Virus record (IMG/VR): IMGVR_UViG_3300025191_000001
Coordinates: 30,039-94,038 of that record
Length of the DNA stretch: 64,000 nucleotides
DNA from: a virus
Taxonomy: Duplodnaviria; Caudoviricetes
Direction: 5' to 3' (one strand)
The notes beneath the pieces were generated by a model, which was not told the origin of the DNA, did no database searches, and was given only the letters and a program-made list of their open reading frames with translations. How positions within the stretch are numbered: the first letter of the stretch is position 1; each line of letters starts with the position of its first letter. The translations under genes and the position numbers were made by a program. Of this stretch, positions 10,790 through 52,364 are shown piece after piece.

Positions 10790-13771
10790 TTATTCTTCTC
10801 CTTCAAAAGGGTTAATGTCCTCCTCCACATTATCAGGTTCAAATGGAGGTTTATCTTCGTCTATGTTAGCAGGTTTTTTAGGTTTAGTCAGTTTCTTTTT
10901 ACTACTAGTTTCTTTTTTACTAGTAGGGTCTCCTTCAAAGTAATCTATCAGGTCATGTAGCTCTCTAGTTTTAAAGTCATAATAAAGGTCTGTAGCGTGT
11001 CCTGTGACACCCCCCCTGCATTTAGGCATATCAACTATAGTGGTATTACGCTCTACTGGGTCTTCTGCCATCTTATCCCTATTAAAGACAATATTTATAT
11101 GAGCAGATTGTACAAAACTACTAGAACCTATCGCATCATACTCTGTAGCTTTTCTTTGCTTTCCTTGTCCGTCAGCAGGAGGTTTCCTTGTGTGAAGTAC
11201 ATTAACAATAATGATACCTCTTTTTACCATTAACTTCTGCCACATCATATGCTTCTCTTGGTCAGAGTTATCAAGGGAGCGTAGTAAATCGCTTAATACA
11301 TCAATTACTATAACCTTACATCCATGCTGTTTAACCATTTGCTCTATCTGCTTCTCTACTACAGTGATTTTACCCTCACGTTCATCTACAATGTTAAAAC
11401 GAGGTACACCATACTCTGTACTAAATAAGTCTTCATACTTGTCCTTAATTTCAGGGCTATCGAGTAATTGAAGTACTTCCCCCCCTTCAGGTATAGCTTG
11501 TAAGTTAATACCTAAGTGCATAGATAACATATCAAGTGCATACTCTGCGGAAGTTGACTCTAAGGAAACTACCCCCGTCTTAGCAATATCAAGACAGTCC
11601 ATGATCCAATGATATACCATAGAATTTACAAGAGTCGTATTATGAGTAACTGTGCCGTCACCTAAACAAAATCTTTTATTACCATCGATCTGAAAACCGT
11701 AATATTGCCCCTTTCCTAAGCTTTCTACCTCAATGGATGTTCTTATAGGGTCTCTTCCACTTGTCCTATCTTTAGCGATTTTTCGTCCTACCTTCAAATT
11801 AAGTTTAGACATATCTCCAGACAAAAACATTCGCAAGTACTCGCCTTTGAAGTCATTTTGACAATTTTTTTCTACCACATTAGCCGTTACCCTAAAACCT
11901 AAACTCCTTGCTAACTTTAACGCATCCTCCGCCAGTTGGTTATTTTTTAGAGTTAGTTCATAGGAAACACCGTTGTGTAAATAGCCGTCTCCGTCTAATA
12001 AACCACTTAGCAACGCTACTCGGTCTTCGTAACAAGCTACCATATACTCTTGTGGTATATGTTTATTATTTATTAAGTTTTTATTCTTTAACCAAACTTT
12101 TAAACCCCCTTTTACGCTATAGGTAGTGCAGGTTTCTCTTAACGCTGAGGGGGATATAGTTATTTCATAATTATTATAACTACACCAATCGTACAACCAC
12201 TTTTTAAGTTCCCTATCTTTATTAGAAAAAGTGAACCTAGATGTAGCGGAATGTCCCTCTGCTAACCACAAACCCACCATATAAGGGTGTTCTACCTTAT
12301 TTCCTTTACCTAATTCCGTCATATCTGCTATGTATCCTTTAAGGGAATCCTTTTTAGTTTTACTTAGTTCTAAGTAATCCTTAATATTAATATCAACAGT
12401 TTGATTTTTGTTAAAACCAAACTTAGTGATAAAAGGTTTTAACGATAAAATATGACTCTCGTTGACAACATAGTCCATCCCTCTTTGTTGTTTTATTTTA
12501 TATAAATTTTCAAAACCTTGGCATACAGATAATATATTACGAGGGCTTCCGTCGTCGCCCATGACCTGATCACCTTTTTTAATATCTTGTACTTTTTTAA
12601 TAGTATTGTCTGCCATTAGTACTGGAGTATCCTTGCCCAAGCACTTGCCAACAGAACTATCGGCTATAATATTAACAATCCTCCCAAAACCAATGCCACC
12701 TCTCATATTTTCTTGCAGACGATGCATGAAAGGAGGTAACGTCAGTTTAGGTGTATTAAGAAAATCAGGAAGTTCCTCTATAATTTCATTAGAACCTTTA
12801 ATACCACTTGATACACAAGGTTTAGCATTGTAGAAATTACGTATAAATTGTTTATGTTTCCCTTTCTGTAGCATATCATTAGGGTCTTTACCCGACCACG
12901 TTACAATATGTACTTTCTCTGCTGGTAATACGTCTAAGCATCGTTCTATTGCCTCCTTGCCAGCTTTATCAGAGTCTAGGGCAAGGTATATGTTGTCATA
13001 GGTATCTAACCAATCGTATTGTGCTGATAGTTGTTTATAAGCACTTCCCTCCCCCGTGGTAGGAGAAACTATAGGGAATTGGTCGTACTCAGTTTGACCT
13101 CGTGACCTGTTGTATTCTGTAAACATCTCTAAAGCAGCATGGCAGTCCTCTTGCCCACCACAGACCATTACGTACTTTCCGTGACCTTTTTTCCATCGAA
13201 CTTGTCCGTATAAGTCGCTAGACATACCTGTCTTACCTAGTCTAGGTTGTTTAAAATTCTTAGGGTGTTTTCTTATAGTGTAGCCCGTAATTTTACCGTT
13301 TTCCGTCTCTGGGTAATAACGTGCTTCGACCTCTCCATTACTGTCAAGTTTTGTAAGACACCCATAGAATTTTACAAACTCATCCTTAATTCCTCTGTAC
13401 CCTTTACCTTTGTAGCCTATAGACCTAATTAAATTTTTAACTTCGTCTATAGATAAAGGTTCGGCTTTAGATGTCTTAGATAGTTTAATATTCTTAGACA
13501 CTTTACCGTTATCATCTAGACTTAAGTCATTTGCTATAGAGCTTTTACTCAACATATCATTGTCATAAACTTGGTTGCAAGACCAACAATAAGCGTCATA
13601 GTATGTACCTTCGTCTGTATCGTGTTGGTACACAGACATAGCGTCAGAACTACCACAACATTTTAAGGATGGATAATCCTCAATAATCTCATCAGATATA
13701 CAAGGGAAGTGTTGTGATATACGGTCTCCCGATGATTTACCCTCTTGTTTATTCTTTGTAATCTTCTTCAC
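10790..13771 (-). CDS. T7 gp4-like primase-helicase containing an intein
   Basis: Zn finger, TOPRIM (GQED, LDSDKAG), Walker A ADSSVGK/T, VIVID. Confidence 0.92.
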   Translation of the reverse strand: MKKITKNKQEGKSSGDRISQHFPCISDEIIEDYPSLKCCGSSDAMSVYQHDTDEGTYYDAYCWSCNQVYDNDMLSKSSIANDLSLDDNGKVSKNIKLSKTSKAEPLSIDEVKNLIRSIGYKGKGYRGIKDEFVKFYGCLTKLDSNGEVEARYYPETENGKITGYTIRKHPKNFKQPRLGKTGMSSDLYGQVRWKKGHGKYVMVCGGQEDCHAALEMFTEYNRSRGQTEYDQFPIVSPTTGEGSAYKQLSAQYDWLDTYDNIYLALDSDKAGKEAIERCLDVLPAEKVHIVTWSGKDPNDMLQKGKHKQFIRNFYNAKPCVSSGIKGSNEIIEELPDFLNTPKLTLPPFMHRLQENMRGGIGFGRIVNIIADSSVGKCLGKDTPVLMADNTIKKVQDIKKGDQVMGDDGSPRNILSVCQGFENLYKIKQQRGMDYVVNESHILSLKPFITKFGFNKNQTVDINIKDYLELSKTKKDSLKGYIADMTELGKGNKVEHPYMVGLWLAEGHSATSRFTFSNKDRELKKWLYDWCSYNNYEITISPSALRETCTTYSVKGGLKVWLKNKNLINNKHIPQEYMVACYEDRVALLSGLLDGDGYLHNGVSYELTLKNNQLAEDALKLARSLGFRVTANVVEKNCQNDFKGEYLRMFLSGDMSKLNLKVGRKIAKDRTSGRDPIRTSIEVESLGKGQYYGFQIDGNKRFCLGDGTVTHNTTLVNSMVYHWIMDCLDIAKTGVVSLESTSAEYALDMLSMHLGINLQAIPEGGEVLQLLDSPEIKDKYEDLFSTEYGVPRFNIVDEREGKITVVEKQIEQMVKQHGCKVIVIDVLSDLLRSLDNSDQEKHMMWQKLMVKRGIIIVNVLHTRKPPADGQGKQRKATEYDAIGSSSFVQSAHINIVFNRDKMAEDPVERNTTIVDMPKCRGGVTGHATDLYYDFKTRELHDLIDYFEGDPTSKKETSSKKKLTKPKKPANIDEDKPPFEPDNVEEDINPFEGEE
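11639..12643 (-). mobile_element. intein with LAGLIDADG endonuclease (335 aa) in helicase Walker A
   Basis: GK|CLGKDTPVLMAD...VNESHIL...LLSGLLDGDG...GTVTHN|TT. Confidence 0.93.
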
Positions 13772-18003: not shown

Positions 18004-18031
18004 TTGACTTATAAATAAGTTGTGGTATAAT
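18004..18031 (+). promoter_or_regulatory. sigma70-type promoter
   Basis: TTGACT-N16-TATAAT with extended -10 TG. Confidence 0.7.
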
Positions 18032-18052: not shown

Positions 18053-18292
18053 ATGGATAATTACTTAGAGAATTTAAAATTTTCACTAATTGATAAGGTA
18101 GTGGAGACTATGAAAGAACAAGGTATAACAGCTTATCGTATCGCTAAAGACAACGATATAAACGAAGCTTATCTTAGTAGAGTTTTGAATAAGAAAACAA
18201 TCACTACTATAGACCGTATATTAATCCTTGCGGATTGTATTGGGTTAAGAGTAGATGATATTATTTTTAGATTAGAGGTTGACAACAAGTAA
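18053..18292 (+). CDS. XRE/Cro-type HTH protein
   Basis: MKEQGITAYRIAKDNDINEAYLSRVLN. Confidence 0.8.
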   Translation: MDNYLENLKFSLIDKVVETMKEQGITAYRIAKDNDINEAYLSRVLNKKTITTIDRILILADCIGLRVDDIIFRLEVDNK

Positions 18293-18307
18293 TCTATATG
18301 TTTTAAT
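18279..18307 (+). promoter_or_regulatory. promoter upstream of structured element A
   Basis: TTGACA-N17-TTTAAT with TG extension. Confidence 0.55.
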
Positions 18308-18313
18308 GTAAGA

Positions 18314-18740
18314 ACAAGTAGTAAATTCATATATGTGGGTATACCTGTCCATATATGTCTTATCGTGGTTAGACAACGTGAGCCACTAGCACTAGGGAAG
18401 GTAAGGTCACTACCATGTAGTCATCGTATTACATGGTACACTTTACGGGGTTAGGTGCGATAGTCTGTCAGTTTGTATTAGCTGATGAAGATTAACCCCT
18501 GTTCAACCGATGATACTTAGGTTGTTCGTAACAAGGCTCTTATACAAATAAGAGATGGAAACTTCAAAAACTCTTGAACTCAAGAAGATAATCACTAAGG
18601 TGTTTCTTTTTAGATTCTGGTTTTAAAGATAAAACTTTCAACGCCCTGTCCCCGTAAAACACTGGCAAGTGTTTCCTATTTAGTTAGGTTATGGGGTAGG
18701 GTAGTTGCGTCTTTAAAACTTTGAATCTAAGAAGATAATC
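18314..18740 (+). ncRNA. putative large structured ncRNA or origin primer RNA, copy A
   Basis: No long ORF; series of stems covarying with the paralog at 46359-46779; conserved loops. Confidence 0.7.
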
Positions 18741-18830
18741 TATAAAGATACAATCTTTTAAAGAGACAATCTTTAAAGAGTACCTTTAACAACTACGTTG
18801 TTAGAATACAATCTTTATAAGAGAACAATC
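18720..18830. repeat. iteron-like block (ACAATCTTT x3) and palindrome TAACAAC-TAC-GTTGTTA (18787-18803)
   Basis: 18720-18765 is 45/46 identical to 46759-46804. Confidence 0.8.
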
Positions 18831-18942
18831 TACTAATTACTAGACTGTGAGAAATAAATAGTAATTAATAGTAAATACCTCTTGACTCTGTACTTTAATC
18901 TATCTATACTTACCTCACTTATTTAGGACGAGGTACAGAATT

Positions 18943-30618: not shown

Positions 30619-30647
30619 CCATTTAGAAGCCTTGTAACACTCTAAAA

Positions 30648-30674
30648 TAAAGCACCTAATAGAGGTGCTTTTTT
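30648..30674 (+). terminator. intrinsic terminator ending the pre-early block
   Basis: AAAGCACCT/AGGTGCTTT stem plus T tract. Confidence 0.85.
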
Positions 30675-30869
30675 ATTGCTTGCAATAAATGAGGACATCT
30701 TACAAGGATTAAGACAACCGTTATAGCGGCATACAAGCACCGCTACGGCCTTTAAAACTTACACCTAACACAATGGCATACCTTAACGTTTTAAACGTTA
30801 TCACGGGCTTTACAGGAACTGTAATGGCTATATCTGTGTTAGGAGTGTTAACCTTTAAAGATTGTATCT

Positions 30870-31091
30870 TAATAACTACGTTATTAGAGTATCTCTTATT
30901 AATTACATTAATAGATTAGAACGTTAACAATTAATTGTTAATTTGTACCTTTATAGTTTTGTAACCTTGTTAACCCTAGTGATACTTTGAAGCATTCTTG
31001 TGTTAGCTTGCTAACCAATTTGATTCCCTCCCTTGCAAGTACCTTGCCACTTTGTTCCTTTATAGATTGCCCCCTAATAACGTAGTTATTA
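30870..31091. repeat. two palindromes TAATAAC-(TAC/GTA)-GTTATTA (30870-30886; 31075-31091)
   Basis: Same palindrome as at 18787 and 46826 with a compensatory C:G to T:A change. Confidence 0.75.
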
Positions 31092-31333
31092 AAATTAATC
31101 CTTTATTATGTATTAAACTAGAAATCTTCCATCACAGGGTACTAAAAAGGTATCATTTTAACGTAGTGAAGAGTTCTCACTTATACCAATACACTTGTTT
31201 AAGTTGTACCTTAATAAGCTTACAATGCTATAGAGAGCCTCTGAGAGGGGATATCTTTAGATACTACTCTTGGCATACTATATGCTTAAAGAAATATATG
31301 GTATAGAATATGCTATAGCAATAACCTTGCCAG
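31034..31333. promoter_or_regulatory. three sigma54 -24/-12 boxes (31034-31050 minus; 31270-31286 plus; 31317-31333 minus)
   Basis: GTGGCAAGGTACTTGCA; TTGGCATACTATATGCT; CTGGCAAGGTTATTGCT. Confidence 0.55.
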
Positions 31334-31415
31334 AGTGTACAATTTTGAAAGATTATTCTTTTATATGTATATAAGGATTTTTTTCACTTAGAAGGTACTA
31401 AAAAGGTATCATTTT
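31138..31415 (+). repeat. 22-bp exact direct repeat GGTACTAAAAAGGTATCATTTT (31138-31159; 31394-31415)
   Basis: Direct reading. Confidence 0.85.
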
Positions 31416-31891
31416 CATAAAGGAATACTTATGCAAAAATATTGCATATTCATTCAAGGATACTATGTTGGGTAGGTATGCATGTTAAGCGGGTAAGTAT
31501 TCAATAGGGAAAAGCTATCAATATTTGAGAATTACAAATGTAATCTATACGGGAAAAAGTCCTACCTTAAACACCCAATCACATGAATCCTCATGAACCT
31601 ACATATTTTAGGATATTCTTTTTGAAGTTAATCTAATAAAAGGTGATATTTTGTATATAAAAATGTTGGAAAAATACTAATTTTTTAAGAGTACATATGT
31701 ATAAGGTATATTTCTGTAAAGTAGATATATTTCAATAGGTTACACTAAATAAATAGATATTTTAGGAGAGGTAGATATTTTGTAAGATATTGATATTTCT
31801 GAGGTTATAGATTTTGTAGGTTAATGTATGTTTTTGAGAGGTTACTACTTGTTGTACGTAATACTAAGTATTGTAAAGGGTAGAACCCATC

Positions 31892-37473: not shown

Positions 37474-38187
37474 CTATTTACCGTGATTTTCTGAATATCC
37501 AGCGCCTTCTTTATTAAGACGAGTAATAGCTTCTTTCCTAGCCTTACAAGCAAGGTCGAATGCCTCTTTTTTGCCATATTTTCTTATAGAAAAATATCTA
37601 GTCTGCCATTTACCATCTAATTCCGACCAAGCTGCAACGTACCCTTTAATTTTACCACTTTCTTTGCGAAGAGATACCCCTGTAAACCCTGTAGTATTAT
37701 TTTTACTTTTTCTTTTATTCCTTGCTTGCTTCTCTTTCAAAACCCAAGTACAGTTATCGGGGTGATATCCCTTGTTTACGTCTGCTCTTTCTATTGAATA
37801 ATTTTCGTTAGGTCTCCTCCCCATATCATATATAAACTGCTCAAAAGAGTTTTTCCAACCTTCATACATATCAATACCTCTGCCCCCGTAATCAACATAA
37901 CCTTTGTCATTTTTATTGTAGCATCTTCCTTTTATACTGCTCCATATGTAGTATTCAGAAGCGTGGGACATACCGTGTGTAGCTCTTCTCTTACTCATAA
38001 GTTCTTTTTGTAGGCAGCCACAACTTCTTGTCTGACCACTTACTAAACTGTAAGCCACTACCTCTACTTTGTTACCGCAGGTACATTCACATAAGTATTT
38101 AGTATTACGGTTACTATCACTCCCTATAAATTCTATTACTTTTAGTCTGCCGAAAGTTTCTCCTTCGTGATTTACAAATTTACCCAT
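37474..38187 (-). CDS. HNH-like homing endonuclease with AP2 domain
   Basis: GETFGRLKV, CECTCG, SCGC, YGGRGI, SIERADVNKGYHPDNCTW, AP2-like C-terminus. Confidence 0.85.
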   Translation of the reverse strand: MGKFVNHEGETFGRLKVIEFIGSDSNRNTKYLCECTCGNKVEVVAYSLVSGQTRSCGCLQKELMSKRRATHGMSHASEYYIWSSIKGRCYNKNDKGYVDYGGRGIDMYEGWKNSFEQFIYDMGRRPNENYSIERADVNKGYHPDNCTWVLKEKQARNKRKSKNNTTGFTGVSLRKESGKIKGYVAAWSELDGKWQTRYFSIRKYGKKEAFDLACKARKEAITRLNKEGAGYSENHGK

Positions 38188-38247
38188 TTCTTAAACTCCT
38201 GTAAAACCTTTTAAATTTCTTGAAAGTCCTTGTATTCTCCTTATTTA

Positions 38248-38682
38248 TCAGTCAGTAAATACTATATCTATGTTACCTGTTTCATCACACACTAATTGCA
38301 TCTTAGATATATCTACGTCATCGACAATATCTCTATTTGATTTAAAACTTTTAATAATACGTTCTTCTAAATCCTCTTCAAAATCTTTTACAATTTCTTG
38401 GAAAGCTTTATTTTTTCTAACTGTATTACGCCAGTCTTTCTCTTTTAAAAATGTACCATACTGAAGTAAGGTATCTACAGCGTCTTTAGGGTCGGAGGTT
38501 ATCTTAATTATATCAGCTTGAGTTTCATCCCAACAGTAGTATAAATCTATAGTTTCAATTCCTAACACTTTCTTAAACTCTGTAGTGATGAAATTTCCCA
38601 TCCAATCTTCCCAGCCTTCGGTTTTCTGTAGGTCGGATTCGTACATGTTCATTCTCCTTAGTTGTTCATAAAAATTGTACAC
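38248..38682 (-). CDS. hypothetical protein
   Basis: ORF in operon. Confidence 0.6.
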   Translation of the reverse strand: MYNFYEQLRRMNMYESDLQKTEGWEDWMGNFITTEFKKVLGIETIDLYYCWDETQADIIKITSDPKDAVDTLLQYGTFLKEKDWRNTVRKNKAFQEIVKDFEEDLEERIIKSFKSNRDIVDDVDISKMQLVCDETGNIDIVFTD

Positions 38683-38698
38683 CCTTAAAAAGTGAACG

Positions 38699-40003
38699 TC
38701 AAGTGTTATTTTTCCTAAGTCCTCTATAAAATTGCTTAACGTCTTTATGTACTATTACATCATTATAAGTAGGTTCTTTCACAAATGCAATACTTTTTAA
38801 ATCTTTAACTCTAGACAGAGCTACATACAATTGTCCGTGACTAAATGCCCCTTTCCCTATATCAATTGCAACATTATTTAAAGTTTGTCCTTGGCTAACG
38901 TGTACAGATTGCGCATAAGCCAATTCTAAAGGTATCTGTGTAAACTTGCTGACAACTTCCTTCTCTAAGTTACCAAGTTTGTTACGGTAGTTATATTTTT
39001 CCCATGTGTTAGGTAGTACTGTAACCTCCCTACCATTATGTTTCTTAACACGAACCATAACCTTATCTACATAAGTTACTATGCCCTTCTCCCCGTTGAC
39101 GTATTCTCCGTTCTCATCATTAGCCTTAAACATTACTCTCGCTCCTTCTCGGAGTTCCACCTTATGCCCTACCGTGGAGTCAGCCCACTTATCTTCTGTC
39201 AGTATATTTTCGATACGTGCTTGGTAGGTGAATATAGGAGTCTCTAACCTCTTAAAGTATTTCCTATTGTACTTCCTTACATCTGCCTTGTAGTTACATA
39301 ACACAGTAACATCTTCATTAGGTACGTAAGGAGTAGATTCTTTAATTATTGCGTCAAGTGCAAATTTGTAATTTTTATCTTTCTGGCGAATACTCGAAAG
39401 CATTTTAGCCTGTCTTTCATCTTGCTGTCTAAATACTTTAGTGAGTTCCACTAACTCAAACTGGAAAGCAGCACTCTTAAAACAGAAAGGAGATGAGTAC
39501 TCACTGTAGTATGCTTCTTCCTCATAAGACGTGATAACTGGATCGATCTGGAAAAAATCACCAACCACGATTATTTGTAGACCGCCAAAGGGCTTATTGT
39601 TTCCCCTAACCATCTGTAATTTAGAGTTTATAAGTTCAAACATGTCCATACGTAGGCAGCTAATTTCATCTATCACTATGCGTTTTACAGGAGAATACAC
39701 TCCAAATAAGTCTTTAGCCTTACGTGAAGCACTCATGAAGTCCTGTGCGGTAGGTACACCTAGCGGGAGTCCAAACGTCCTATGGCATGTGGTCCCTTTA
39801 ATGTTTAAAGCAGCTATACCCGTAGGGGCACACAAAATTGTATTAGGATCTAGTATGTGGTCAATCACTACCGACTTTCCACAACCTGCCTCAGCGGTTA
39901 ATAATACATTCTTCCCATCCCTAATTTTACTTAATGCCATCTCTTGTTCCTGCGAAAGTGTGATCCCCACATTCCCCTCCTTACAACTGTTTATCTTCAT
40001 CAA
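38699..40003 (-). CDS. Pif1/RecD-like SF1B DNA helicase
   Basis: AEAGCGKS, APTGIAA, IDEIS, PFGG.Q..VGDFFQ, FRQ, SQGQTL, GQLYVALSRV. Confidence 0.92.
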   Translation of the reverse strand: MMKINSCKEGNVGITLSQEQEMALSKIRDGKNVLLTAEAGCGKSVVIDHILDPNTILCAPTGIAALNIKGTTCHRTFGLPLGVPTAQDFMSASRKAKDLFGVYSPVKRIVIDEISCLRMDMFELINSKLQMVRGNNKPFGGLQIIVVGDFFQIDPVITSYEEEAYYSEYSSPFCFKSAAFQFELVELTKVFRQQDERQAKMLSSIRQKDKNYKFALDAIIKESTPYVPNEDVTVLCNYKADVRKYNRKYFKRLETPIFTYQARIENILTEDKWADSTVGHKVELREGARVMFKANDENGEYVNGEKGIVTYVDKVMVRVKKHNGREVTVLPNTWEKYNYRNKLGNLEKEVVSKFTQIPLELAYAQSVHVSQGQTLNNVAIDIGKGAFSHGQLYVALSRVKDLKSIAFVKEPTYNDVIVHKDVKQFYRGLRKNNT

Positions 40004-40256
40004 AGACTATTTTCCAGAAGTCATCCCATCTACTTTTTACTAAAAAATACAATCCTATACAATTCCCTACTACACATCCTAAGAAGATTATCCCTACGAT
40101 ATACCACACTGCATTATCCATTACAACTCATCCTCAAAATTCATTATAAACTCATCTATGTCATCAAACAAGTCTTTCTCTTTATCAGTGTGTAAACTGT
40201 CATAAGGAAACTCTTGTGCAAGACGCTCTCTTAATTTATTAAGAATAACTCTAGCT

Positions 40257-40757
40257 TTATGCTTTGTCATAATACTTCCCTTCTAGTTTTGTAATCTCGT
40301 TAATATTATCCTCTATCCAAACCATAGCGTAGGAAGTCTCATCCCTCATACACTCATACACTGTTTGATAATCCCATCCCTTAAAGCAATCGTAATACTT
40401 ACACAAAGCCTTAGCATGTTCAATCCTTTTAGAATGTTGTTCTTTCTCAGGGTATAATTGCACAGTAATCTCATGCCCTAGTATTTCCATATCTCTTTCT
40501 ATGGAATCACTTCCAAAGAGTAATCTCAATGTGTTTATAATACTCTGCTTAAACTTAGCTTCATATAATTCTTGTGCAATAACTCCTGTAGAGTTAGTAA
40601 GCCCTCTTACAATCTTAATATAGAAAGGTGTATTGGTAGCTTGTACATTAATGGGTAGCTCATCTTTAATTAGTAATATAGGACATACAATGCTTAGGCC
40701 TGTCCACAAGATAATACTGAAAGTTAGTATGTAAAAAAGTTGCTCAATCATTGCCAT
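40257..40757 (-). CDS. membrane-anchored hypothetical protein
   Basis: N-terminal TM helix. Confidence 0.65.
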   Translation of the reverse strand: MAMIEQLFYILTFSIILWTGLSIVCPILLIKDELPINVQATNTPFYIKIVRGLTNSTGVIAQELYEAKFKQSIINTLRLLFGSDSIERDMEILGHEITVQLYPEKEQHSKRIEHAKALCKYYDCFKGWDYQTVYECMRDETSYAMVWIEDNINEITKLEGKYYDKA

Positions 40758-40932
40758 TCTCCTTTAAATATTTAATCTCATCTTTTAGTTCTTCTATTTC
40801 TTCCTCTAGTGCGTATATCTTATAAAGAAGTTCTTCCTCTGCTCCCTCTTGCGCTTCTTCTATTTGATCGTCAATGAACTGTTGTAGTTCATATACTAAA
40901 TCACTTACATCTGTAAAACTATATGTTGTCAT
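40744..40932 (-). CDS. small acidic coiled-coil protein
   Basis: AGGAG RBS. Confidence 0.6.
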   Translation of the reverse strand: MTTYSFTDVSDLVYELQQFIDDQIEEAQEGAEEELLYKIYALEEEIEELKDEIKYLKENGND

Positions 40933-40950
40933 ATTGTCTCCTTTGAAGAA

Positions 40951-40968
40951 AGAGGGCTTTCGCCCTCT
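40951..40968 (-). terminator. intrinsic terminator
   Basis: AGAGGGC-GAAA-GCCCTCT followed by TTCTT. Confidence 0.7.
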
Positions 40969-40976
40969 ATAAAGAA

Positions 40977-42110
40977 TTATTCGTAGAAAGTTACAGTACG
41001 TTCTTGAGGGAACACCTCGTATATATTCTCCATTTCAAGGTTCTCGTAACCAACATAACTGTAGTAGCTGTATTCTACACGGTAGTATCTACCTTTCCAA
41101 GAGAACACAGCATAGCAATCTTCTGAACCACCCTCACCGCCACCCTCTTGGGTAATATGCTTCGCATCTTTTGGTAGACTACCCCATCCGTCTACAAGGT
41201 TTTCCTCAAAGAGAAGATACAAGGTCATATCGGTATCGTAGTAATCTAATCCTTCTTCAATACCTGCATCTGCAATCTCTCTCAACAATTCTAGTGCTTT
41301 ATCTTCACCTAAATACTTAGACATATATTTCTCCTCTAAATTTAACAGTTTTACTACTTTATCAAAATCCTCTTTACGAGGTCTTACAAAATGTTCTAAG
41401 TTTAAGACAATAAAATCTGTAGCCCATCCCTTAGTCAAATTTGTAATCGTTTTCTGTAGGGCAAGTGAGTATGCTTTCATCCAAGTCATACCTCTATCGA
41501 ACCAGTATTGTTTAAGATACCAACGCTCTAAGGCTATAGCGGTTATTTCCTCTCTGAACATACTAATCTGTTCTACAAAATCTAGTTTATTAAACTTACT
41601 CTTATCAATCAACACCTGTTTACCATCTTTTAAACATTTAGTATAAGTAGGTGGCTCAGGATGTGTAATCAACTCATGAAGTAAGTCATGGTCATATTCA
41701 TACTCTACGAAGTCATTAAAGAACATTTCTTTAGACTTGTCAAGATTTAAAAATGATTTATCTCCTAAATCTTCTTTCCACCAGTTGATTAACTCTTCGT
41801 AAAGGTCTGGTATAAGTTTACAACCTTTTTGTTTCAACACTAGTATATCTTTCTTGTGTTTCTGCCAAGAAGGATTACTCCAACCTAAGTGAGAACATTT
41901 AATAGTATACACCATATCAGGTGTGGCGTAGATAGAATTACTGCTGTATGTGAATAATAGTTCAAATAATGAAAATGGTACAGGCACAACGTCATATCCT
42001 TTATCCTTGTATTTGTCTGCTAAATCCAGAGGACACATCAAATCAACGTCTTTGCTACCTCTAAGCATTATACCATGTTTAGACAATGCTGTTGTACCTA
42101 TAATTATCAT
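40977..42110 (-). CDS. conserved phage protein, nucleotidyltransferase-like N-terminus fused to an acidic C-terminal domain
   Basis: IGTTAL...KDVDL, YTIKCSH, YDHDLLHE; internal RBS/ATG at 41324. Confidence 0.7.
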   Translation of the reverse strand: MIIIGTTALSKHGIMLRGSKDVDLMCPLDLADKYKDKGYDVVPVPFSLFELLFTYSSNSIYATPDMVYTIKCSHLGWSNPSWQKHKKDILVLKQKGCKLIPDLYEELINWWKEDLGDKSFLNLDKSKEMFFNDFVEYEYDHDLLHELITHPEPPTYTKCLKDGKQVLIDKSKFNKLDFVEQISMFREEITAIALERWYLKQYWFDRGMTWMKAYSLALQKTITNLTKGWATDFIVLNLEHFVRPRKEDFDKVVKLLNLEEKYMSKYLGEDKALELLREIADAGIEEGLDYYDTDMTLYLLFEENLVDGWGSLPKDAKHITQEGGGEGGSEDCYAVFSWKGRYYRVEYSYYSYVGYENLEMENIYEVFPQERTVTFYE

Positions 42111-42119
42111 ATTGTCTCC

Positions 42120-42386
42120 TCAATTAATTGGTTTCTGATTCATATCTTCATTCATATCTCTAGCTAAATCCCAGTAAACAACCCCTTTCCTATCTACAAA
42201 TACATCGAAAGATTGCGTCTCAAAAGGATTAGTTGGATTAATAATATCATAACGATAAAGGCTGTCAAGTCTTTTTGTACCTAATTGCCTAATTTGTATT
42301 GCTACTTGCTGCCCAGTCTTAAATGCTATGCCATTTTGCAAGGAATACTTCATAGCGATTAATTTATCTTGCATGTTATTGTCCAT
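42120..42386 (-). CDS. hypothetical protein
   Basis: GAGGAG RBS before MDNNMQ. Confidence 0.6.
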   Translation of the reverse strand: MDNNMQDKLIAMKYSLQNGIAFKTGQQVAIQIRQLGTKRLDSLYRYDIINPTNPFETQSFDVFVDRKGVVYWDLARDMNEDMNQKPIN

Positions 42387-42798
42387 GAGATACTTTCTCC
42401 TCAGTGTCAATAATAATTTTATCAAAGCTTGCCCATAACTTGTCTTGACTAGTGGAATCCCCTGTACATTGATATACACTACCTGACCAAGATAAATCCT
42501 TTTCCATCATCATGTTTATGTAAAACATATCATTAAGGTCTTCCTCCCAATTATCCTCTAAATCTTTTAAGAGTTTGCCTACCTCAGAAAGTTTAATCTC
42601 GGACAGTGACAGTTGCCCATGACCATTGTAGAACTCTGTCTGATTCAACACTTGTTTCCATAAAGGGGTAGGCTCTTGATAAATATCCTCTTCTAAGATT
42701 TTTAACTTTCTATCTATCTCTGCTAGATGCTCATCTACCTTCTGTCTTAGGTAGAATACGTCTTCAGCTAAGTCTTGTCTGCAAGTATCTGTAATCAT
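42376..42798 (-). CDS. hypothetical protein
   Basis: GAGGAG RBS. Confidence 0.65.
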   Translation of the reverse strand: MITDTCRQDLAEDVFYLRQKVDEHLAEIDRKLKILEEDIYQEPTPLWKQVLNQTEFYNGHGQLSLSEIKLSEVGKLLKDLEDNWEEDLNDMFYINMMMEKDLSWSGSVYQCTGDSTSQDKLWASFDKIIIDTEEKVSHGQ

Positions 42799-42995
42799 AA
42801 TTTATTCTCCTCATTTAGTTTATTTAAAATATTCTCACAATACTCGTATGTGCCCTCACACACAAAGTTTTCACATATAATATCTGTATTAAAGAATTTG
42901 GCGTCTACGTAGGACATTACTTTGTATTTGTTTTCACTAGGCAATCCTGTAGCGATAATTTTGTGTTTTGGTTTATTCAATATCGACCTCCTCAA
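42795..42995 (-). CDS. hypothetical protein
   Basis: Coupled ORF. Confidence 0.5.
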   Translation of the reverse strand: MRRSILNKPKHKIIATGLPSENKYKVMSYVDAKFFNTDIICENFVCEGTYEYCENILNKLNEENKL

Positions 42996-43185
42996 TTTTA
43001 ATTACTTGACAAGGAAAGTCGTCCTCTAGGTCTAACGGAAAGAATTTAATTTCACAAGTATCTTCCTCAAAGAATCTCTCTTGTCTCATTCTAGACATAA
43101 ACCATTCTCTTTCCTCTGGGTCGTCAAAGTTGCACCATAAGTCTTCGTCAACTTCTATTAGTATTTCTGCTTTAAGGTATTTCAT
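42973..43185 (-). CDS. acidic hypothetical protein
   Basis: GGAGGAG RBS. Confidence 0.6.
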   Translation of the reverse strand: MKYLKAEILIEVDEDLWCNFDDPEEREWFMSRMRQERFFEEDTCEIKFFPLDLEDDFPCQVIKIEEVDIE

Positions 43186-43355
43186 AGGTCAGTCTCCTCC
43201 TCCTCTGTCAATCTACCATAACAGTCATCTGCTAAGGTCGCATATTTACTTAATAATTCCTCTGTATCTTTTAACAGTCCCTCGTTTACTTTACCTGTAG
43301 CTAAGATGTGTAAGAATCTCAATTCATCGTATAACTGGTACAAAGCCTTATCCAT
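43182..43355 (-). CDS. 57-aa hypothetical protein (not in ORF track)
   Basis: MDKALYQLYDELRFLHILATG...; GAGGAG RBS; TTGACA-N17-TATCAT promoter upstream. Confidence 0.6.
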   Translation of the reverse strand: MDKALYQLYDELRFLHILATGKVNEGLLKDTEELLSKYATLADDCYGRLTEEEETDL

Positions 43356-43441
43356 AGTTTCTCCTCTTATAAAATTAAAGTCTGTAAAGCACCACTTTTT
43401 AAAATGATACCTTACAGACTTTGTGTTGTCAACTAATTATT

Positions 43442-44224
43442 TTAAATATCACCCTCATATAGTTTAGTGATAAATTTACTACCTTCAGAACGTCTATTCT
43501 CATCAGTATTCATCTTGACATAACCTACATGGTCATATTTGGCAAACCTTTGGTCGTTTTGTATATAAGTTACTCTTTCTATGAAGTCTTTAAAACCATC
43601 TTCTCGTTTCTTAACTGCATAGCGTTGCCTACTGTCGCCTAAGACTAGGTATTTAGTGCCTACACCACAACGCTCTAATAAGAGTTTAACAGTGTCAGGA
43701 CTCATTAGCTGGCTCTCATCTATAATCACAACACTGTAATCGAATGTACTGCCTAAGAGGAAGTTAGGGATTGTCAATCTAATACGACCTGCTGCTTCAT
43801 CAGCCTCCAATTTAGGTTTAGACATAAATTCTTGGAAGATGTATCTTGTAGTTTGAAGATGCGCGAGAAGTTTGTCTGACTCGGAACCAGAAAGATACCC
43901 TATCTGATCATCCCCTGTCTCACAAGGAGACTTAATAAAAATTATGTTATTGTACTCTTGAGATTTAATGGATTGCAGTGCTAAGTACAAGGAGATAGAA
44001 GTTTTACCACAACCACTAGGTGCATCTACAATAGTGAAAGTGTGCTGATTAAAACTATCAACTACAAAGTTTTGTTGCCCTGCAGGTTCAAACCAATCCA
44101 TATTCCAATCATTGTCGAACTCTTTCTTCTTACGTTCTAATGCCAAATCCTCTATGCCCCTTTTTACACGTTGTTCGTGTTTATCAATTTTCTCTTTACG
44201 ATTAGGTTTACGTTCTCTAGTCAT
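43442..44224 (-). CDS. phoH: PhoH-like ATPase
   Basis: APSGCGKT, IGYLSG, FLLGSTF, IIDESQ, LLERCG, GDSRQ. Confidence 0.88.
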   Translation of the reverse strand: MTRERKPNRKEKIDKHEQRVKRGIEDLALERKKKEFDNDWNMDWFEPAGQQNFVVDSFNQHTFTIVDAPSGCGKTSISLYLALQSIKSQEYNNIIFIKSPCETGDDQIGYLSGSESDKLLAHLQTTRYIFQEFMSKPKLEADEAAGRIRLTIPNFLLGSTFDYSVVIIDESQLMSPDTVKLLLERCGVGTKYLVLGDSRQRYAVKKREDGFKDFIERVTYIQNDQRFAKYDHVGYVKMNTDENRRSEGSKFITKLYEGDI

Positions 44225-44904
44225 TATTCACTGTCCCCTTCATCATCTTCACCTACCATCATAGCCACTAACTCACGTTTCGTCTTTTTGAGTAGTTCCT
44301 CTTTAGTAGGTAATCCTTGTGATTGTTCATCATAGAACTCTTCTTCAATAGATTTTCTATATTCAAACATTCTTTCTAATCGTTCTTTATGCTCAGAAAT
44401 GTCATGGATATATAATGGAGTTCCCTTGAGTACATCAGTGAGTTCCTCATCGGTAAGAAATCCTTTGTAGACTTCCTCGTAGAAGGTTCGTATATCTCTG
44501 TCATGGAAATCTGTACTAGCTTTAATCTCAGGTGCTTTATTTGGAAAGTGTCCATACGTAGCTGTGTGTATCATTGTGTAAGCATAAGGTTCAATTCCTA
44601 TACTATCCCCCGCTAAGAGTAGGACACTGCCACCAGAAGAAGCTACGGACTTATTAACAGTGTATACAGTGGCATTCGTCATTCTTAAAGCATTGTATAC
44701 CGCTTTAGCAGTGTTTACACACCCACCATAACAGAAAACATTAAGCACAATCACCTCGTCCTCATGAGCCTCCTCACATACATTAAGTAACTTCTCAAAC
44801 TGAGAAATGTCCTCTATGTGACGTGGAGTAGTGAAACAATGTTTCTCCCCAAGTGAACGCACTTTATAACTACAACCATTTTCTAATTTATCACTCATAT
44901 CCAA
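44224..44904 (-). CDS. ClpP-like serine protease
   Basis: GGCV, VASSGGSVLLLAG, TMIHT. Confidence 0.75.
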   Translation of the reverse strand: MDMSDKLENGCSYKVRSLGEKHCFTTPRHIEDISQFEKLLNVCEEAHEDEVIVLNVFCYGGCVNTAKAVYNALRMTNATVYTVNKSVASSGGSVLLLAGDSIGIEPYAYTMIHTATYGHFPNKAPEIKASTDFHDRDIRTFYEEVYKGFLTDEELTDVLKGTPLYIHDISEHKERLERMFEYRKSIEEEFYDEQSQGLPTKEELLKKTKRELVAMMVGEDDEGDSE

Positions 44905-45011
44905 AACTCCTTATTTTAACCAAATGTTCTACTTCCTCTCTAGGAGAGAGTTTACTTGTACCACAATACTCCTCTATATAGTAACATGCCTCTTCGTGTG
45001 TGTAACCTTCT

Positions 45012-45335
45012 TCAATCAATATCTTGTACATAATTTACTTTAAAACTCCCTGGCACAATTGCATCCATTACTATTACTTTCTCTAGTCCTACTACACACC
45101 ATCGAAATATTTCTATTAACCACTCTCTTTCACAATCTTGTCTATTAACAGGGTCTACTATTACGAATCCTGTGGACTTTTCATACAGGAAGGCATTTAC
45201 TATGTGGAAGCAATAATCTTTTCTCAAGTATTTAACTAGGGAGTTGACTCCTTCTGGTGTACACTCAAATGTAGGCATATTAAGTCTTGAGGCAAAGGGA
45301 AATTCTTGTCTGAAGTAATCGTCTTTACAAATCAT
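45012..45335 (-). CDS. hypothetical protein
   Basis: Coupled ORF. Confidence 0.6.
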   Translation of the reverse strand: MICKDDYFRQEFPFASRLNMPTFECTPEGVNSLVKYLRKDYCFHIVNAFLYEKSTGFVIVDPVNRQDCEREWLIEIFRWCVVGLEKVIVMDAIVPGSFKVNYVQDID

Positions 45336-45501
45336 CTTTGTCCTCTCTGCAACTCAATGCACCCCTTAACCAATCTAAATCCTTTCTATTAATGTCCTTA
45401 ATTAAGAAATTACCACCAATATCTTCGTGAGAAATTACCATTCCATGTATTTTACAAATTTCTATAATCCTCTCTAGGAAAGCTTGTTCTCTTTTATTCA
45501 T
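45325..45501 (-). CDS. hypothetical protein
   Basis: MNKREQAF...ISHEDIGGNF. Confidence 0.55.
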   Translation of the reverse strand: MNKREQAFLERIIEICKIHGMVISHEDIGGNFLIKDINRKDLDWLRGALSCREDKDDL

Positions 45502-45844
45502 GTCTATCCCCTGACACTGCCACCTCAAAGAATTTACCCTTTAAACATTCTTCTAATGACACAATTCTGACTGAATCAGGGTAATTATCTAATAAACTAT
45601 TAAGTGTGCCCATGTTATAAGCTCCTGTAACGCCCTCAGACAATAGATTACATTTATATGTACTACCACTATACCCTATAAAAGAAATCGTCTCAGAATC
45701 GCATACAGCTCGTTCTATGCCACTATTCATCCTCCAACTATCACTACCTAAATAACCTCCTGCCCAAGAACCAAATACTTTGTATATAATTTCATCTTCG
45801 TATTTAATTTCTAGGAGGGCAAACTTGTCTGGATTGTATATCAT
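45494..45844 (-). CDS. conserved phage hypothetical protein
   Basis: YKVFGSWAGGYLGSDSWRMNSGI...GYSGSTYKC. Confidence 0.8.
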   Translation of the reverse strand: MIYNPDKFALLEIKYEDEIIYKVFGSWAGGYLGSDSWRMNSGIERAVCDSETISFIGYSGSTYKCNLLSEGVTGAYNMGTLNSLLDNYPDSVRIVSLEECLKGKFFEVAVSGDRHE

Positions 45845-46194
45845 AAATATTCCTCCACATAAATATTATTCTCTCTACGGTAAGCCATCTCTTTACACAT
45901 TGCTACATGTACATAAGGTTCGTAGTCTGAAACAGTCCACATGATTAATGATTGTAAGTGTTCATCAGAGATATTGCAAAGTTCAATTCTCTGAGGTTCA
46001 TTTAGTCTATCACCTCCCTTAGTAAATACACGCCCCCATGTAAACTCCTGACGGTAGTTCTCCCAATCATTGTACATCTTATCAGCTTCTCTCTGATTTA
46101 GTCTTACAATGGCTTCTAGTTCGTTATACGAGGTGTCTAACCCTATCTTAGCGTACATCTCAAAGAGTTCCTCTAATTTGTTGCTATGTTGCAT
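45841..46194 (-). CDS. hypothetical protein
   Basis: AGGAG RBS, first gene after promoter. Confidence 0.7.
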   Translation of the reverse strand: MQHSNKLEELFEMYAKIGLDTSYNELEAIVRLNQREADKMYNDWENYRQEFTWGRVFTKGGDRLNEPQRIELCNISDEHLQSLIMWTVSDYEPYVHVAMCKEMAYRRENNIYVEEYL

Positions 46195-46229
46195 TATATT
46201 TCTCCTTTAAGTTCCCTACCTAAGAACAT

Positions 46230-46257
46230 ATTCTACCACAGGTTTGTTCCCTGTCAA
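46230..46257 (-). promoter_or_regulatory. sigma70 promoter for leftward operon
   Basis: TTGACA-N16-TAGAAT with TG extension. Confidence 0.7.
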
Positions 46258-46324
46258 CTGTTTATTTTCAATTATTTTATTTAAGGGGTTTAGGTATTAT
46301 TTTAAGTTTATTTGAAAATAGTAG

Positions 46325-46352
46325 TTGCAAAGTTTGAAAACTCGTGTATAAT
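46325..46352 (+). promoter_or_regulatory. promoter upstream of structured element B
   Basis: TTGCAA-N16-TATAAT. Confidence 0.65.
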
Positions 46353-46358
46353 TAATCT

Positions 46359-46779
46359 TATACGGTAAAGAAATGTTTTTGTGTAAAGTCTTTCGACATT
46401 TCGCCTTAACGGGTCGTTCCACTAGAAAGCGTCAGTGGATAGCAATAGGACAGAAGATGGTCACTGTAACCTAATCATCGTATTAGGTCAATACACCTCT
46501 TAGGGAGTAGTTGCGATAGCCTGTAACGTGCTTAGACGTTATGAAAAGTACTCCTTTCCAGATAACTTAGCAGAGTCTGGCTAACAATCCCATGCCCTAA
46601 TGTGTATGGTGGAAACCTCAAAATCTTGAACTCAAGAAGATAATCTCTTTATTAGATTCAAATTTTATGATGGCAGAACTAGTCCCTAGAGTTCACGTAA
46701 AACCGATTATAAGGTTTCCTTTTTAAGGTTGTGTTCTTTAGGGCAGTTTTGCCTAAAATTTGAATCTAAGAAGATAATC
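46359..46779 (+). ncRNA. putative large structured ncRNA or origin primer RNA, copy B
   Basis: Paralog of 18314-18740 with covarying stems and identical loops. Confidence 0.7.
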
Positions 46780-46845
46780 TATAAAGATGCAATCTTTTAA
46801 AGAGTAACCTTTAAAAGATATACTCTAACAACTACGTTGTTAAGA
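46759..46845. repeat. iteron-like block and palindrome TAACAAC-TAC-GTTGTTA (46826-46842)
   Basis: 46759-46804 is 45/46 identical to 18720-18765. Confidence 0.8.
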
Positions 46846-47042
46846 ATCCTTCTAACTACTTGTCTGTCAAATATCTCTCTTACAAACGTGACAGTATAGG
46901 TTTGTATAAGGTCAGACTACCAACACACTAGTATTACGTATACCAATACAGTACTATATCAATATAATTCAATTAATTTACCATTATAATGAAATAGTTC
47001 TTGACTTGGTACAAAATCGATGATACTATATACTTGTAGACA

Positions 47043-47309
47043 ATGAAAAATAAACAAGTAAACGAGGTTAGATATATGAGATGTGTAAGTTGTAATCGTA
47101 TGCTAACGGACACTGAACGTATGTCTGTTAAGTATTACATTGATGAGGATACCCCACAGTTGTTAGTTAAGACAGATATTCCAGAGGACATGTGCCATAA
47201 TTGTAAAGTGCAAAGTTTCACTACGGCGTATTACTCTAACAGAGAATATGCCTTTGAGGGATTAACCTCTGGGTTGTGTCCTTCAGCAGGATTTAGTGAT
47301 AATTATTAA
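47043..47309 (+). CDS. Zn-finger protein
   Basis: MRCVSCNRML...DMCHNC; the internal ATG after GAGGT is the likelier start. Confidence 0.7.
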   Translation: MKNKQVNEVRYMRCVSCNRMLTDTERMSVKYYIDEDTPQLLVKTDIPEDMCHNCKVQSFTTAYYSNREYAFEGLTSGLCPSAGFSDNY

Positions 47310-47318
47310 GGAAACATT

Positions 47319-47579
47319 ATGAGTAGAGCAGAGACATTTTTAAGGTGCAGTAATTGCTTAGAAAAGCTTAATCTAATATGTGATAAGCTAGGGTATGATG
47401 ACAGTGATAGAGAGGTAGTTGCAGAAGTGTTATTATTCCTTGAGATGGGGAAGCTTAAAGAGAAATCTAAAAAGATTGACTTCGATAAGGTTGTTAGAGA
47501 TAGCAAGGAAAGAACTAAAGATAATCCTTTTTTACAAGACCCTTATGTAAATTTGAACTTATCCAAAGTGAAATTCTAA
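47319..47579 (+). CDS. hypothetical protein
   Basis: AAGGA RBS. Confidence 0.6.
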   Translation: MSRAETFLRCSNCLEKLNLICDKLGYDDSDREVVAEVLLFLEMGKLKEKSKKIDFDKVVRDSKERTKDNPFLQDPYVNLNLSKVKF

Positions 47580-47724
47580 TGATTTTATTAGATTAGGATT
47601 GTGTTTCTAAACTAAATTCCTAATTAGAACAATGGTTTAATAAAATTGATTAAAAAAGTGCTGTACAATCGAAAAAGTTGTGCTACAATATATACAGACA
47701 CTAAAGAAAACTTAGTAAATAAAT

Positions 47725-47950
47725 TTCCCTCTAACGCCATAATGGATTGCACAGATGTAGTCGGGCGAACCTTAGAGGATTTAATTAGGTAGTGTAAAAC
47801 TTTAATAAGAACTACCTCCTTCCTAAAGACTCTCTCTTAAAGAGTCTCCCTGTTTAGCAGAGTCCATTCCCTCCTTCGGAGGGTAGTGCATAAATCTACC
47901 CTAGCTTGTGTTGTTTTCCTTCTCCTCCATGCAAGCTGCTCTGCTAACTT
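47725..47950 (+). ncRNA. structured non-coding leader or sRNA with anti-SD motifs
   Basis: Nested stems, no ORF, extended -10 TGcTACAAT upstream. Confidence 0.45.
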
Positions 47951-48007
47951 TCTTTCTATTTTACAAGCACCTCGCAAGTGTTGAAACAAGTAACACACAA
48001 TAAGATT

Positions 48008-48090
48008 CTTTAAAAATAAACTTAACTATTAGATGGGTTTATATCTTACTTGTCCCTGTTGCGAACTGACAGTTAAGTTTATTTTTAAAG
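48008..48090. repeat. 20-bp perfect inverted repeat overlapping the RBS of the HNH gene
   Basis: CTTTAAAAATAAACTTAACT / AGTTAAGTTTATTTTTAAAG. Confidence 0.85.
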
Positions 48091-48101
48091 GAATTTTTAT
48101 T

Positions 48102-48911
48102 TTGACTATATCTAAAGAACTATTTAACTATGTTTTAAATAATACTAATGTAAAAGAAGATACTGGTTGTTGGGAATACCAAGGTAATATCAGTAAGACA
48201 GGTTATGGATTTGCTTCGTTGAACAGAGAAAAATCTTCAGCACATAGAGCGGTTTACCAGTTTCTGTACAGGAAAGTTAGTTTACCTTATATGCTTTGTC
48301 ATATATGTAATAACCCAAAGTGCTGTAATCCTGACCACTTGTACGAAGGCACTGCAAGAGAAAATGAAAGAGACTCTATACTTGCGGGTACTAGTCTATT
48401 TTACAACATAGACCAACGAGGTGAGAACAACATCTCTTCTAAGTTGACTCAAGATATAGTAATAAAAGCAAGAAAATTGGCGGAGGAAGGCCACACCCAT
48501 AATTACATATCTCAACGGCTTGGGGTAATTAGGCGAACATTGTCTAGGGCTATTACAGGACAATCTTGGTCTAATTTGAATGACATCCAACACCCTGTTA
48601 CTTATAACAGCACTAAAGGTAGTTCCCCTTACAAAGGCGTTAAAATCAACAAGGCTAGAGGTAAAGAAGGGGAACTTAGATACGTAGCAAGAATAGGATA
48701 TAAAGGTATTAGGTTTTATATCGGTGGATTTTTGAGTGAAGAAGAAGCTGCACAGCGGTATGACTATTGTTACCAGTGTATCAACGAAACCAACACCTGC
48801 CCGAACGGTACAACAGAGGACGTACTCGCTACTATACAAAAAGATACCAAACTAAATAGACGTTTAAAAGACTTCGTTATAAAGGCGGATAACAATGCCA
48901 ACAAAGAATAA
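48102..48911 (+). CDS. HNH homing endonuclease with HTH and AP2 domains
   Basis: GCWEYQG, AHRAVY, CHICNNPKCCNPDHLYEGT..EN, SSPYKGV...EEEAA..YD; TTG start after AAGGA. Confidence 0.88.
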   Translation: MTISKELFNYVLNNTNVKEDTGCWEYQGNISKTGYGFASLNREKSSAHRAVYQFLYRKVSLPYMLCHICNNPKCCNPDHLYEGTARENERDSILAGTSLFYNIDQRGENNISSKLTQDIVIKARKLAEEGHTHNYISQRLGVIRRTLSRAITGQSWSNLNDIQHPVTYNSTKGSSPYKGVKINKARGKEGELRYVARIGYKGIRFYIGGFLSEEEAAQRYDYCYQCINETNTCPNGTTEDVLATIQKDTKLNRRLKDFVIKADNNANKE

Positions 48912-49248
48912 GACCAACGTGGGTGGCAGACCTCGTGGGTCTAGGAACAAATTAAATGCCTCTGATGAGATTAAGAAAGCTCTCAACAGAGGAACAGGCT
49001 TAGTGGAGCTTAAAGAATTTTTATGGGGTATGATGCAAGACCCTAAAGTATCAGAAATGCAAAAGGCAAAGTTCACACAGATGTATTTAGATGTGATGAA
49101 GTATATTCACACAGAGAACCTTAAAATAGAGAACCCTAAAGAAGATGGTTCTTCTAAAGAATCTAAAGAGATTCATGAAGAGGAGAATACAGATAACACT
49201 CCTGCAAAGAGTGACAAGGTTGCAAGGTTGTCTTTTGGAAGTAAATAA
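48895..49248 (+). CDS. putative terminase small subunit
   Basis: GGRPRGSRNK motif, size, start of late operon. Confidence 0.6.
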   Translation: MPTKNKTNVGGRPRGSRNKLNASDEIKKALNRGTGLVELKEFLWGMMQDPKVSEMQKAKFTQMYLDVMKYIHTENLKIENPKEDGSSKESKEIHEEENTDNTPAKSDKVARLSFGSK

Positions 49249-49278
49249 CCTTGCTTATAACAAGTGAGAGGACAAATT

Positions 49279-51512: not shown

Positions 51513-51514
51513 TA

Positions 51515-51928: not shown

Positions 51929-51932
51929 TTAT

Positions 51933-52265: not shown

Positions 52266-52364
52266 AAGGTTTGCACTTTGGAGAGGGGTTTTACTTAAAG
52301 AGGGCTATGTTGTAATTGACGCATGGTCTAACACAATTTCAATTACAGTATAGAGAGATAGGGA

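Follow-up and report, generated by a model that had tools for sequence, protein, structure and literature searches.

The window, by which we denote the whole stretch of 64,000 nucleotides analysed here, comprises positions 30039-94038 of a viral record of 94,038 bp that is assigned by IMG/VR to the class with direct terminal repeats. It contains two related elements, termed copy A and copy B, and the source of both is a marine Alteromonas phage. The copies mark the two points where transcription turns rightward and head both rightward gene blocks: downstream of A lie small early genes and a methyltransferase gene, downstream of B the block with the genes for terminase, portal and capsid. The leftward operons, which start from the same gaps, carry no such element. 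The gene blocks and the features of both copies are compiled in Table 1. With respect to the coding regions, two observations were made in passing. The 1057-aa ORF at 52365-55538 (+ strand), which is located upstream of the terminase gene, has no PHROG match at E 1e-5; residues ~345-722 of the 993-aa primase-helicase (10790-13771, - strand) also match terminase large-subunit families, probably via the ATPase fold of this protein.

Table 1. Gene blocks, RNA copies, promoters and repeated words of the window (all positions refer to the window)
Feature	Position	Strand	Content or basis
Gene block	1-17.8 kb	-	replication genes: family A DNA polymerase, primase-helicase, exonuclease
Gene block	18.05-33 kb	+	small early-type genes and DNA methyltransferase
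Gene block	33-46.2 kb	-	Dda-like helicase, nucleotidyltransferase, PhoH-like protein, Clp-type protease
Gene block	47.0-64 kb	+	small proteins, HNH endonuclease, terminase, portal, major head protein
HTH-gene promoter	18004-18031		promoter scan
HTH gene, 79 aa, XRE-type	18053..18292	+	ORF list; first rightward gene, just 5' of copy A
Copy A promoter	18279..18307	+	sigma70-type TTGACA-17 nt-TTTAAT, read from sequence
Structured RNA copy A	18314..18741	+	helix coordinates, model matches, covariation
Invariant 18-mer no. 1, copy A (GAACTCAAGAAGATAATC)	18576..18593	+	
Invariant 18-mer no. 2, copy A (GAATCTAAGAAGATAATC)	18723..18740	+	
Repeat/palindrome block after A	18744..18830	.	AAAGAnACAATCTTT twice, AACAAC-TAC-GTTGTT, further ACAATCTTT
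Second promoter after A	18882..18910	+	sigma70-type TTGACT-17-TATACT, before first downstream gene (18943)
Copy B promoter	46325..46352	+	sigma70-type TTGCAA-16 nt-TATAAT
Structured RNA copy B	46359..46780	+	helix coordinates, model matches, covariation
Invariant 18-mer no. 1, copy B	46628..46645	+	
Invariant 18-mer no. 2, copy B	46762..46779	+	
Repeat/palindrome block after B	46783..46845	.	AAAGATGCAATCTTT and AACAAC-TAC-GTTGTT
Second promoter after B	47001..47029	+	sigma70-type TTGACT-17-TACTAT with TG, before first gene of rightward block (47043)

A sequence-only reading of this DNA had placed one copy at each switch between divergent transcription units. This is correct for copy B, which fills the divergent gap 46195-47042. 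Copy A is found ~260 nt to the right of its switch, because the 79-aa HTH gene comes first. The product of this gene matches PHROG families of transcriptional repressors and regulators (E 3.6e-5), and its last codons hold the -35 box of the copy A promoter. The same reading had described both regions as free of ORFs, as preceded immediately by a sigma70-type promoter and as running into a block of repeats and palindromes. All three statements agree with our data: according to the ORF list, no ORF is common to both copies, and both the promoters and the blocks were located next to A and B. In the region 38000-56000, contigs from RNA libraries are patchy and shallow, are distributed over early as well as late genes and leave 46414-47014 uncovered; being contigs, and with a repeated sequence involved, they are uninformative on expression. 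At 46620 and 46842, public DNA contigs over copy B switch to the sequence of copy A; in one joined form, 46645-46755 is left out. As the A/B repeat confuses assemblers, assemblies of such phages may be chimeric at window positions 46620-46842.

Each block consists of 2-3 words similar to AAAGAnACAATCTTT and one palindrome, and is followed by AT-rich DNA; note that the G+C content of the whole genome is itself only 31-41%. The block words are themselves palindromic and consequently fit dimeric operator sites as well as iterons. A related region was observed at 30620-31430, in the middle of the rightward early block. This ORF-poor stretch of 800 bp opens with a bidirectional terminator-like hairpin (30650-30670) and contains the sequence AATAAC-TAC-GTTATT, its inverse at a distance of ~205 bp, a reversed AAGATACAATCTTT word and a perfect palindrome of 18 bp (TTAACAATTAATTGTTAA). 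It is a candidate for an operator cluster or an origin.

Homologues of the element were identified by means of BLAST and exact-pattern scans, the latter being the method by which the sequence collections were searched. These are the B-position element of Alteromonas phage vB_AmeM_PT11-V22 (V22 in the following), two copies in the IMG/VR record G001 (87 kb), one of A type and one of B type, and a further B-type sequence on the metagenome contig L060. A third type, named C, is represented by one copy in G002 (93.6 kb) and occurs also on the IMG/VR fragment L007 and the metagenome contig L058. In total, this gives 7 distinct sequences belonging to three deep lineages. Two copies exist in the genome studied here and in G001, one copy each in G002 and V22. 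Copy A is closer to copy A of G001 than to copy B; therefore, the duplication predates the divergence of these phages. The HTH gene, too, is found 5' of the A-type copy of G001 and of the A position of V22. A sigma70-type promoter precedes the element by 7-15 nt in 7/7 homologues, and the promoter of the V22 orthologue of copy B matches the consensus at 12/12 positions. As judged from these promoters, each element is predicted to constitute the first ~430 nt of a transcript that is initiated by the host sigma70 RNA polymerase at a strong promoter of its own.

For the modelling, helices were defined on the four B-type sequences, and the covariance models R1, R2 and R3 were built from those alone. 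R1 and R2 matched all three A- and C-type sequences over their full lengths (E 5.7e-10 to 4.9e-21), and R3 matched both A-type copies (E 5.2e-15 and 3.1e-11). In copy A, the matches are arranged in the order R3 (18319-18446, E 3.1e-11), R1 (18446-18593, E 4.5e-13) and R2 (18576-18746, E 1.2e-12). R3 gave no match to the C type, which is devoid of most of helix P3. At the A position of V22, none of the three models matched; a different ORF-free leader is located there. The distribution of the element is very narrow, being confined to four phage genomes plus fragments. In the scan of viral contigs, the matches in L008 and L076 turned out to be coding repeats, and among the 51 matches in metagenome contigs only L058 and L060 were real; the remaining pattern matches proved to be chance or coding repeats. 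When representatives of 185,579 prokaryote species were scanned with a paired-12-mer pattern, 6 matches were found, none of which fits R2. Searches with neighbouring proteins led to V22-like phages only.

Two details of the V22 genome deserve a description of their own. At its A position (L010:3256-3690), a copy-A-like HTH gene and promoter are followed by the unrelated leader of ~435 nt, which has a closing stem of 16 bp, a folding z-score of -2.09 and, towards its end, one ACAATCTTTTAAAG word. This leader may be a second, different structured RNA occupying the same slot. Moreover, the gene for an HNH endonuclease directly follows the element in V22 (L003:3333-4127) and is found ~1.2 kb further downstream in our window (48033-48911); it appears to be mobile within the region around the element.

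An alignment of A and B consists of long identical blocks alternating with dissimilar ones. The comparison of the sequences confirmed that both copies share one predicted architecture of at least 14 helices, spread over ~430 nt, and the six stem pairs that had been proposed for A and B are all present in their places. The 5' domain is formed by P1-P7. It begins with the hairpins P1 and P2, the word UAGCA and the three-part hairpin P3, whose loop UCAUCGUA is conserved. P4 encloses the invariant word UGCGAUAG, helix P5 and the invariant AUGAA; P4 is followed by P6, UAACAA, P7 and UGGAAAC, which leads into the first invariant 18-mer. The first 12-mer and its linker make up P8. All homologues have this pairing, which joins the variable linker located 3' of the first 18-mer to part of the AAGAAGAUAAUC core, in differing registers. 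The 3' domain is a rod (P9-P11), which ends in two small hairpins (P12 and P13). In the A types, P12 is capped by a GNRA-type GGCA tetraloop; most of the other sequences carry GAUUAUAA there. In copy B, the outer stem of the rod, P9, consists of 16 perfect base pairs. Like the 5' domain, the 3' domain carries the invariant 18-mer at its end; here, the first 8 nt provide the 3' arm of P9 and the remainder is unpaired. Conservation of both sequence and structure ends at this second 18-mer. The two 18-mers of each copy are direct repeats, which are ~135-150 bp apart, and their exact 12-mer core occurs four times in the 94-kb genome, in each case within the two elements. Of the linkers that had been listed as conserved and unpaired, TAGCA, TGCGATAG, ATGAA, TAACAA, TGGAAAC and the long word ending in AAGAAGATAATC were verified; GGTCACT is not unpaired, as its GGT forms the top of the outer P3 helix.

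In the A-type copy of G001 (L068:1500-1660), both 12-mers carry an identical C-to-A change at the last base (AAGAAGATAATA). This change looks concerted, as is to be expected if one factor reads both words. A pairing between the two 12-mers, as proposed by RNAalifold, was rejected, since the shared change breaks it. Three tertiary pairings are candidates. For the P3c loop (AUCGUA/UGCGAU), one consistent and one inconsistent change were observed; the C type lacks this hairpin. The pairing GGAAAC/GUUUCC has one uncompensated change, which occurs in the C type. The pairing of the P12 loop (GAUUAU/AUAAUC) is lost in the A types, where the GNRA loop is found instead. Two further explanations of individual parts were discarded. 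The 18-mers are poor sigma70 promoters with only 9/12 matches and poor -35 boxes, and they occur nowhere else in the genome. An interpretation of the rod as a MITE with target-site duplication is at odds with the separation of the first repeat from the inverted repeat and with the covariation of the rod in all lineages.

The stability of single-sequence folding is weak, with z-scores of -2.05 for A and -0.74 for B. For this reason, the case for the fold rests on the comparison with homologues. Covariation was assessed in alignments of 6-7 homologues; as controls served 500 shuffles and alignments in which the pairing partners were slid by 1-3 columns. For P1-P3, 99.4% of the cells were paired (slid control 31-47%) and 18 of 30 pairs had changed on both sides. 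The corresponding values were 97.7% (32-54%) and 20 of 25 pairs for P4-P7, and 90.2% (24-53%) and 20 of 44 pairs for P9-P13. All parts taken together, 58 of 99 pairs had changed on both sides and 90-99% of the cells were paired, compared to 24-54% in the slid controls, in alignments fitted to the model, which favours the structure. Independent of this fitting are the stems of A and C, which can be read directly from the sequence, and the slid controls, which share the alignments. In none of the 500 shuffles were the observed values reached, neither for the percentage of paired cells, nor for the number of pairs or cells changed on both sides, nor for the covariation score.

Two additional measures concern the level at which selection acts. 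The identity of A and B is 53% in paired and 73% in unpaired columns; a stronger divergence of the paired columns characterises an RNA with functional linkers. The helices contain 44 G-U cells versus 5 A-C cells, and it is therefore the + strand that folds. Thus, the sequence-only reading was right both in recognising covarying stems in two paralogous elements and in taking the G-U pairs of the plus strand as a hint at the RNA level. The comparisons demonstrate that the RNA of the + strand has a conserved and ornate predicted structure.

A search of the whole window with the 4227 models of Rfam 15, which had been suggested as a check for a known family, yielded no match at gathering thresholds. 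In relaxed mode, only chance matches were obtained, which are far below threshold and mostly hit miRNA precursors on account of the long P9 hairpin. In the genome paper of V22, Rfam was searched and no ncRNA was reported (PMC7289586); the element is therefore unannotated. The proposal of an undescribed large structured phage RNA stands up to these analyses: the fold covaries, the folding strand is the one read from the conserved promoter, and there is no match in Rfam 15. We conclude that the element is a real, so far undescribed and narrowly distributed family of large structured phage RNAs.

As regards the function, we tentatively, and at low confidence, consider the element to be a leader RNA acting in cis on the transcription of the long rightward operons, in analogy to put of phage HK022. 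According to this model, the nascent leader would fold behind the polymerase and act in cis; the folded leader, or a factor bound to its invariant words, would alter how polymerase or transcript enters the long gene block on the right; pauses and terminators, for instance, might be suppressed. Cis action of this kind is exerted by the nut sites of lambda and by the two put RNAs present in HK022. The invariant 18-mers, which contain a -10-like GATAAT, would be contact or pause sites, and the following palindrome block would be a separate DNA module of the operator type. Several findings suggest this role. Every copy is situated between a promoter and the first gene and points into the downstream gene block; terminator-like sites exist on the + strand within the A block (22656, 25203 and 30650); and the A-type copies lie downstream of the HTH gene with its promoter and therefore inside an operon. 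No second promoter was seen by eye in V22, where the HNH gene starts ~50 nt after the block, and for copy A of G001, where the next ORF follows after ~60 nt, so that the element must be the 5' leader of an mRNA in these cases. HK022 put has a length of ~70 nt, consists of two stem-loops forming a V shape, and causes protein-independent antitermination through the beta-prime zinc-binding domain of RNA polymerase. HK022 possesses two paralogous put RNAs of similar sequence and fold behind its early promoters PL and PR (PMC9378689). Copies A and B mirror this arrangement, as they are paralogous, are located just past early sigma70 promoters and point into long operons. Unlike put with its two stem-loops, the element has at least 14 helices and shows no sequence or model similarity; it is outside the put family, and may work like put. 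Its size is an argument against a cis effect, because known cis antiterminator RNAs are small and the element is six times larger than put; likewise, so many helices are more typical of RNPs or ribozyme-like RNAs. Furthermore, a good second promoter is located between the element and the first gene for A and B (promoter scan) as well as for copy B of G001, L060 and the C type (by eye), which makes those genes independent of the promoter of the element, and in V22 and G002, which have a single copy, the second operon manages without it. The combination of boxA and boxB known from lambda nut was not found; GCTCTTA occurs only in copy A of the window, as 5' arm of P7; the corresponding arm reads CCATGC in B-type and CCTTCT in C-type sequences. 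Alternatively, the early transcript might end near the palindrome block, for example at a protein roadblock, and give rise to a free and stable ncRNA that, in concert with proteins of phage or host, would act in trans as a scaffold, a decoy or a catalyst. We judge this to be possible, if rather doubtful. The promoter of the element and the second promoter, which precedes the genes in most contexts, could delimit a separate transcription unit, the invariant single-stranded words suggest the binding of a trans-factor, and conservation stops at the second 18-mer. However, the stretches from copies A and B to the respective first gene yielded no intrinsic terminator, and the next gene in V22 and after copy A of G001 follows without a promoter visible by eye. 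With their size and ornate multi-helix fold including candidate tertiary contacts, the copies resemble GOLLD and ROOL, two Rfam families of large, multi-domain and strongly covarying phage-carried RNAs of unknown function, which we take to be included in the 4227 models. The resemblance is limited to being a large ornate phage RNA that has no assigned role; the element is smaller, is known only from a handful of Alteromonas myophages and invariably heads an operon, immediately after a promoter. The phi29 pRNA is likewise a structured RNA read from an early promoter, and the fold is preserved among its relatives despite low sequence identity. In contrast to this single-copy RNA of ~120-170 nt, which belongs to the phi29-type packaging motor, nothing ties the element to packaging.

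The sequence-only reading had offered, as an alternative to an undescribed ncRNA, a folded primer RNA for replication origins. By analogy with ColE1 RNA II and the T4 origins oriF and oriG, transcription through the folded RNA into the block and the AT-rich tract would prime replication or open the DNA. As in these systems, a promoter-driven, untranslated RNA of several hundred nt leads into repeats and AT-rich DNA, and the repeated words, the palindrome and the AT-rich stretch follow each copy. In addition, both copies coincide with local minima of the cumulative GC skew, whose maximum is near 31-33 kb, and the replication genes for the family A polymerase and the primase-helicase start just left of copy A. 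However, the skew follows gene orientation everywhere, and for this reason it was dismissed as origin evidence. The block words recur in both orientations at 30854-31091 without an RNA element, and one of them persists at the A position of V22 behind the unrelated leader; the block is therefore a separate module at the DNA level, which is a difference to the ColE1 and T4 origin transcripts. Unlike RNA II, the element lacks a G-rich segment for a persistent hybrid, its 3' part and the following block being rich in A/T with few G. Weak promoter-like sites on the minus strand lie at different places (46491-46463 in B, 18641-18614 in A), and no antisense promoter was seen by eye at matching places of these two copies. 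Moreover, T4-type origins need no conserved RNA fold. The primer proposal is not supported, and we regard a role as origin primer or R-loop RNA as decidedly unlikely. Still far less probable is a feature of the DNA that has no role as RNA, such as cruciforms, a single-strand initiation site or an array of protein sites. The 16-bp perfect inverted repeat given by P9 of copy B could indeed extrude as a cruciform, and the 18-mers are invariant direct repeats, as protein sites would be. However, the ratio of G-U to A-C cells implies that only one strand folds well, helices with bulges and loops of 3 to 8 nt covary, the promoter is conserved at a fixed distance, and double-stranded protein sites would not select compensatory changes.

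Structured ncRNAs of more than 400 nt with strong covariation are, to our knowledge, rare, and each of them has so far given new biology or a new RNA architecture. An unlikely but far-reaching outcome would be a new kind of large, tertiary-folded RNA machine, by which a lytic phage might reprogram the transcription or replication apparatus of its host without a dedicated protein. Such a machine would be either a put-like RNA that is held on the elongating RNA polymerase and is six times the size of the largest one known, or a primer similar to RNA II by which two origins are defined. Since V22 is a cultured and strictly lytic phage with a known host and a single copy, the element is experimentally accessible. 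That the element always follows an early promoter and heads an operon leads to a testable idea, namely that a marine phage may control the polymerase of its host by means of an RNA.
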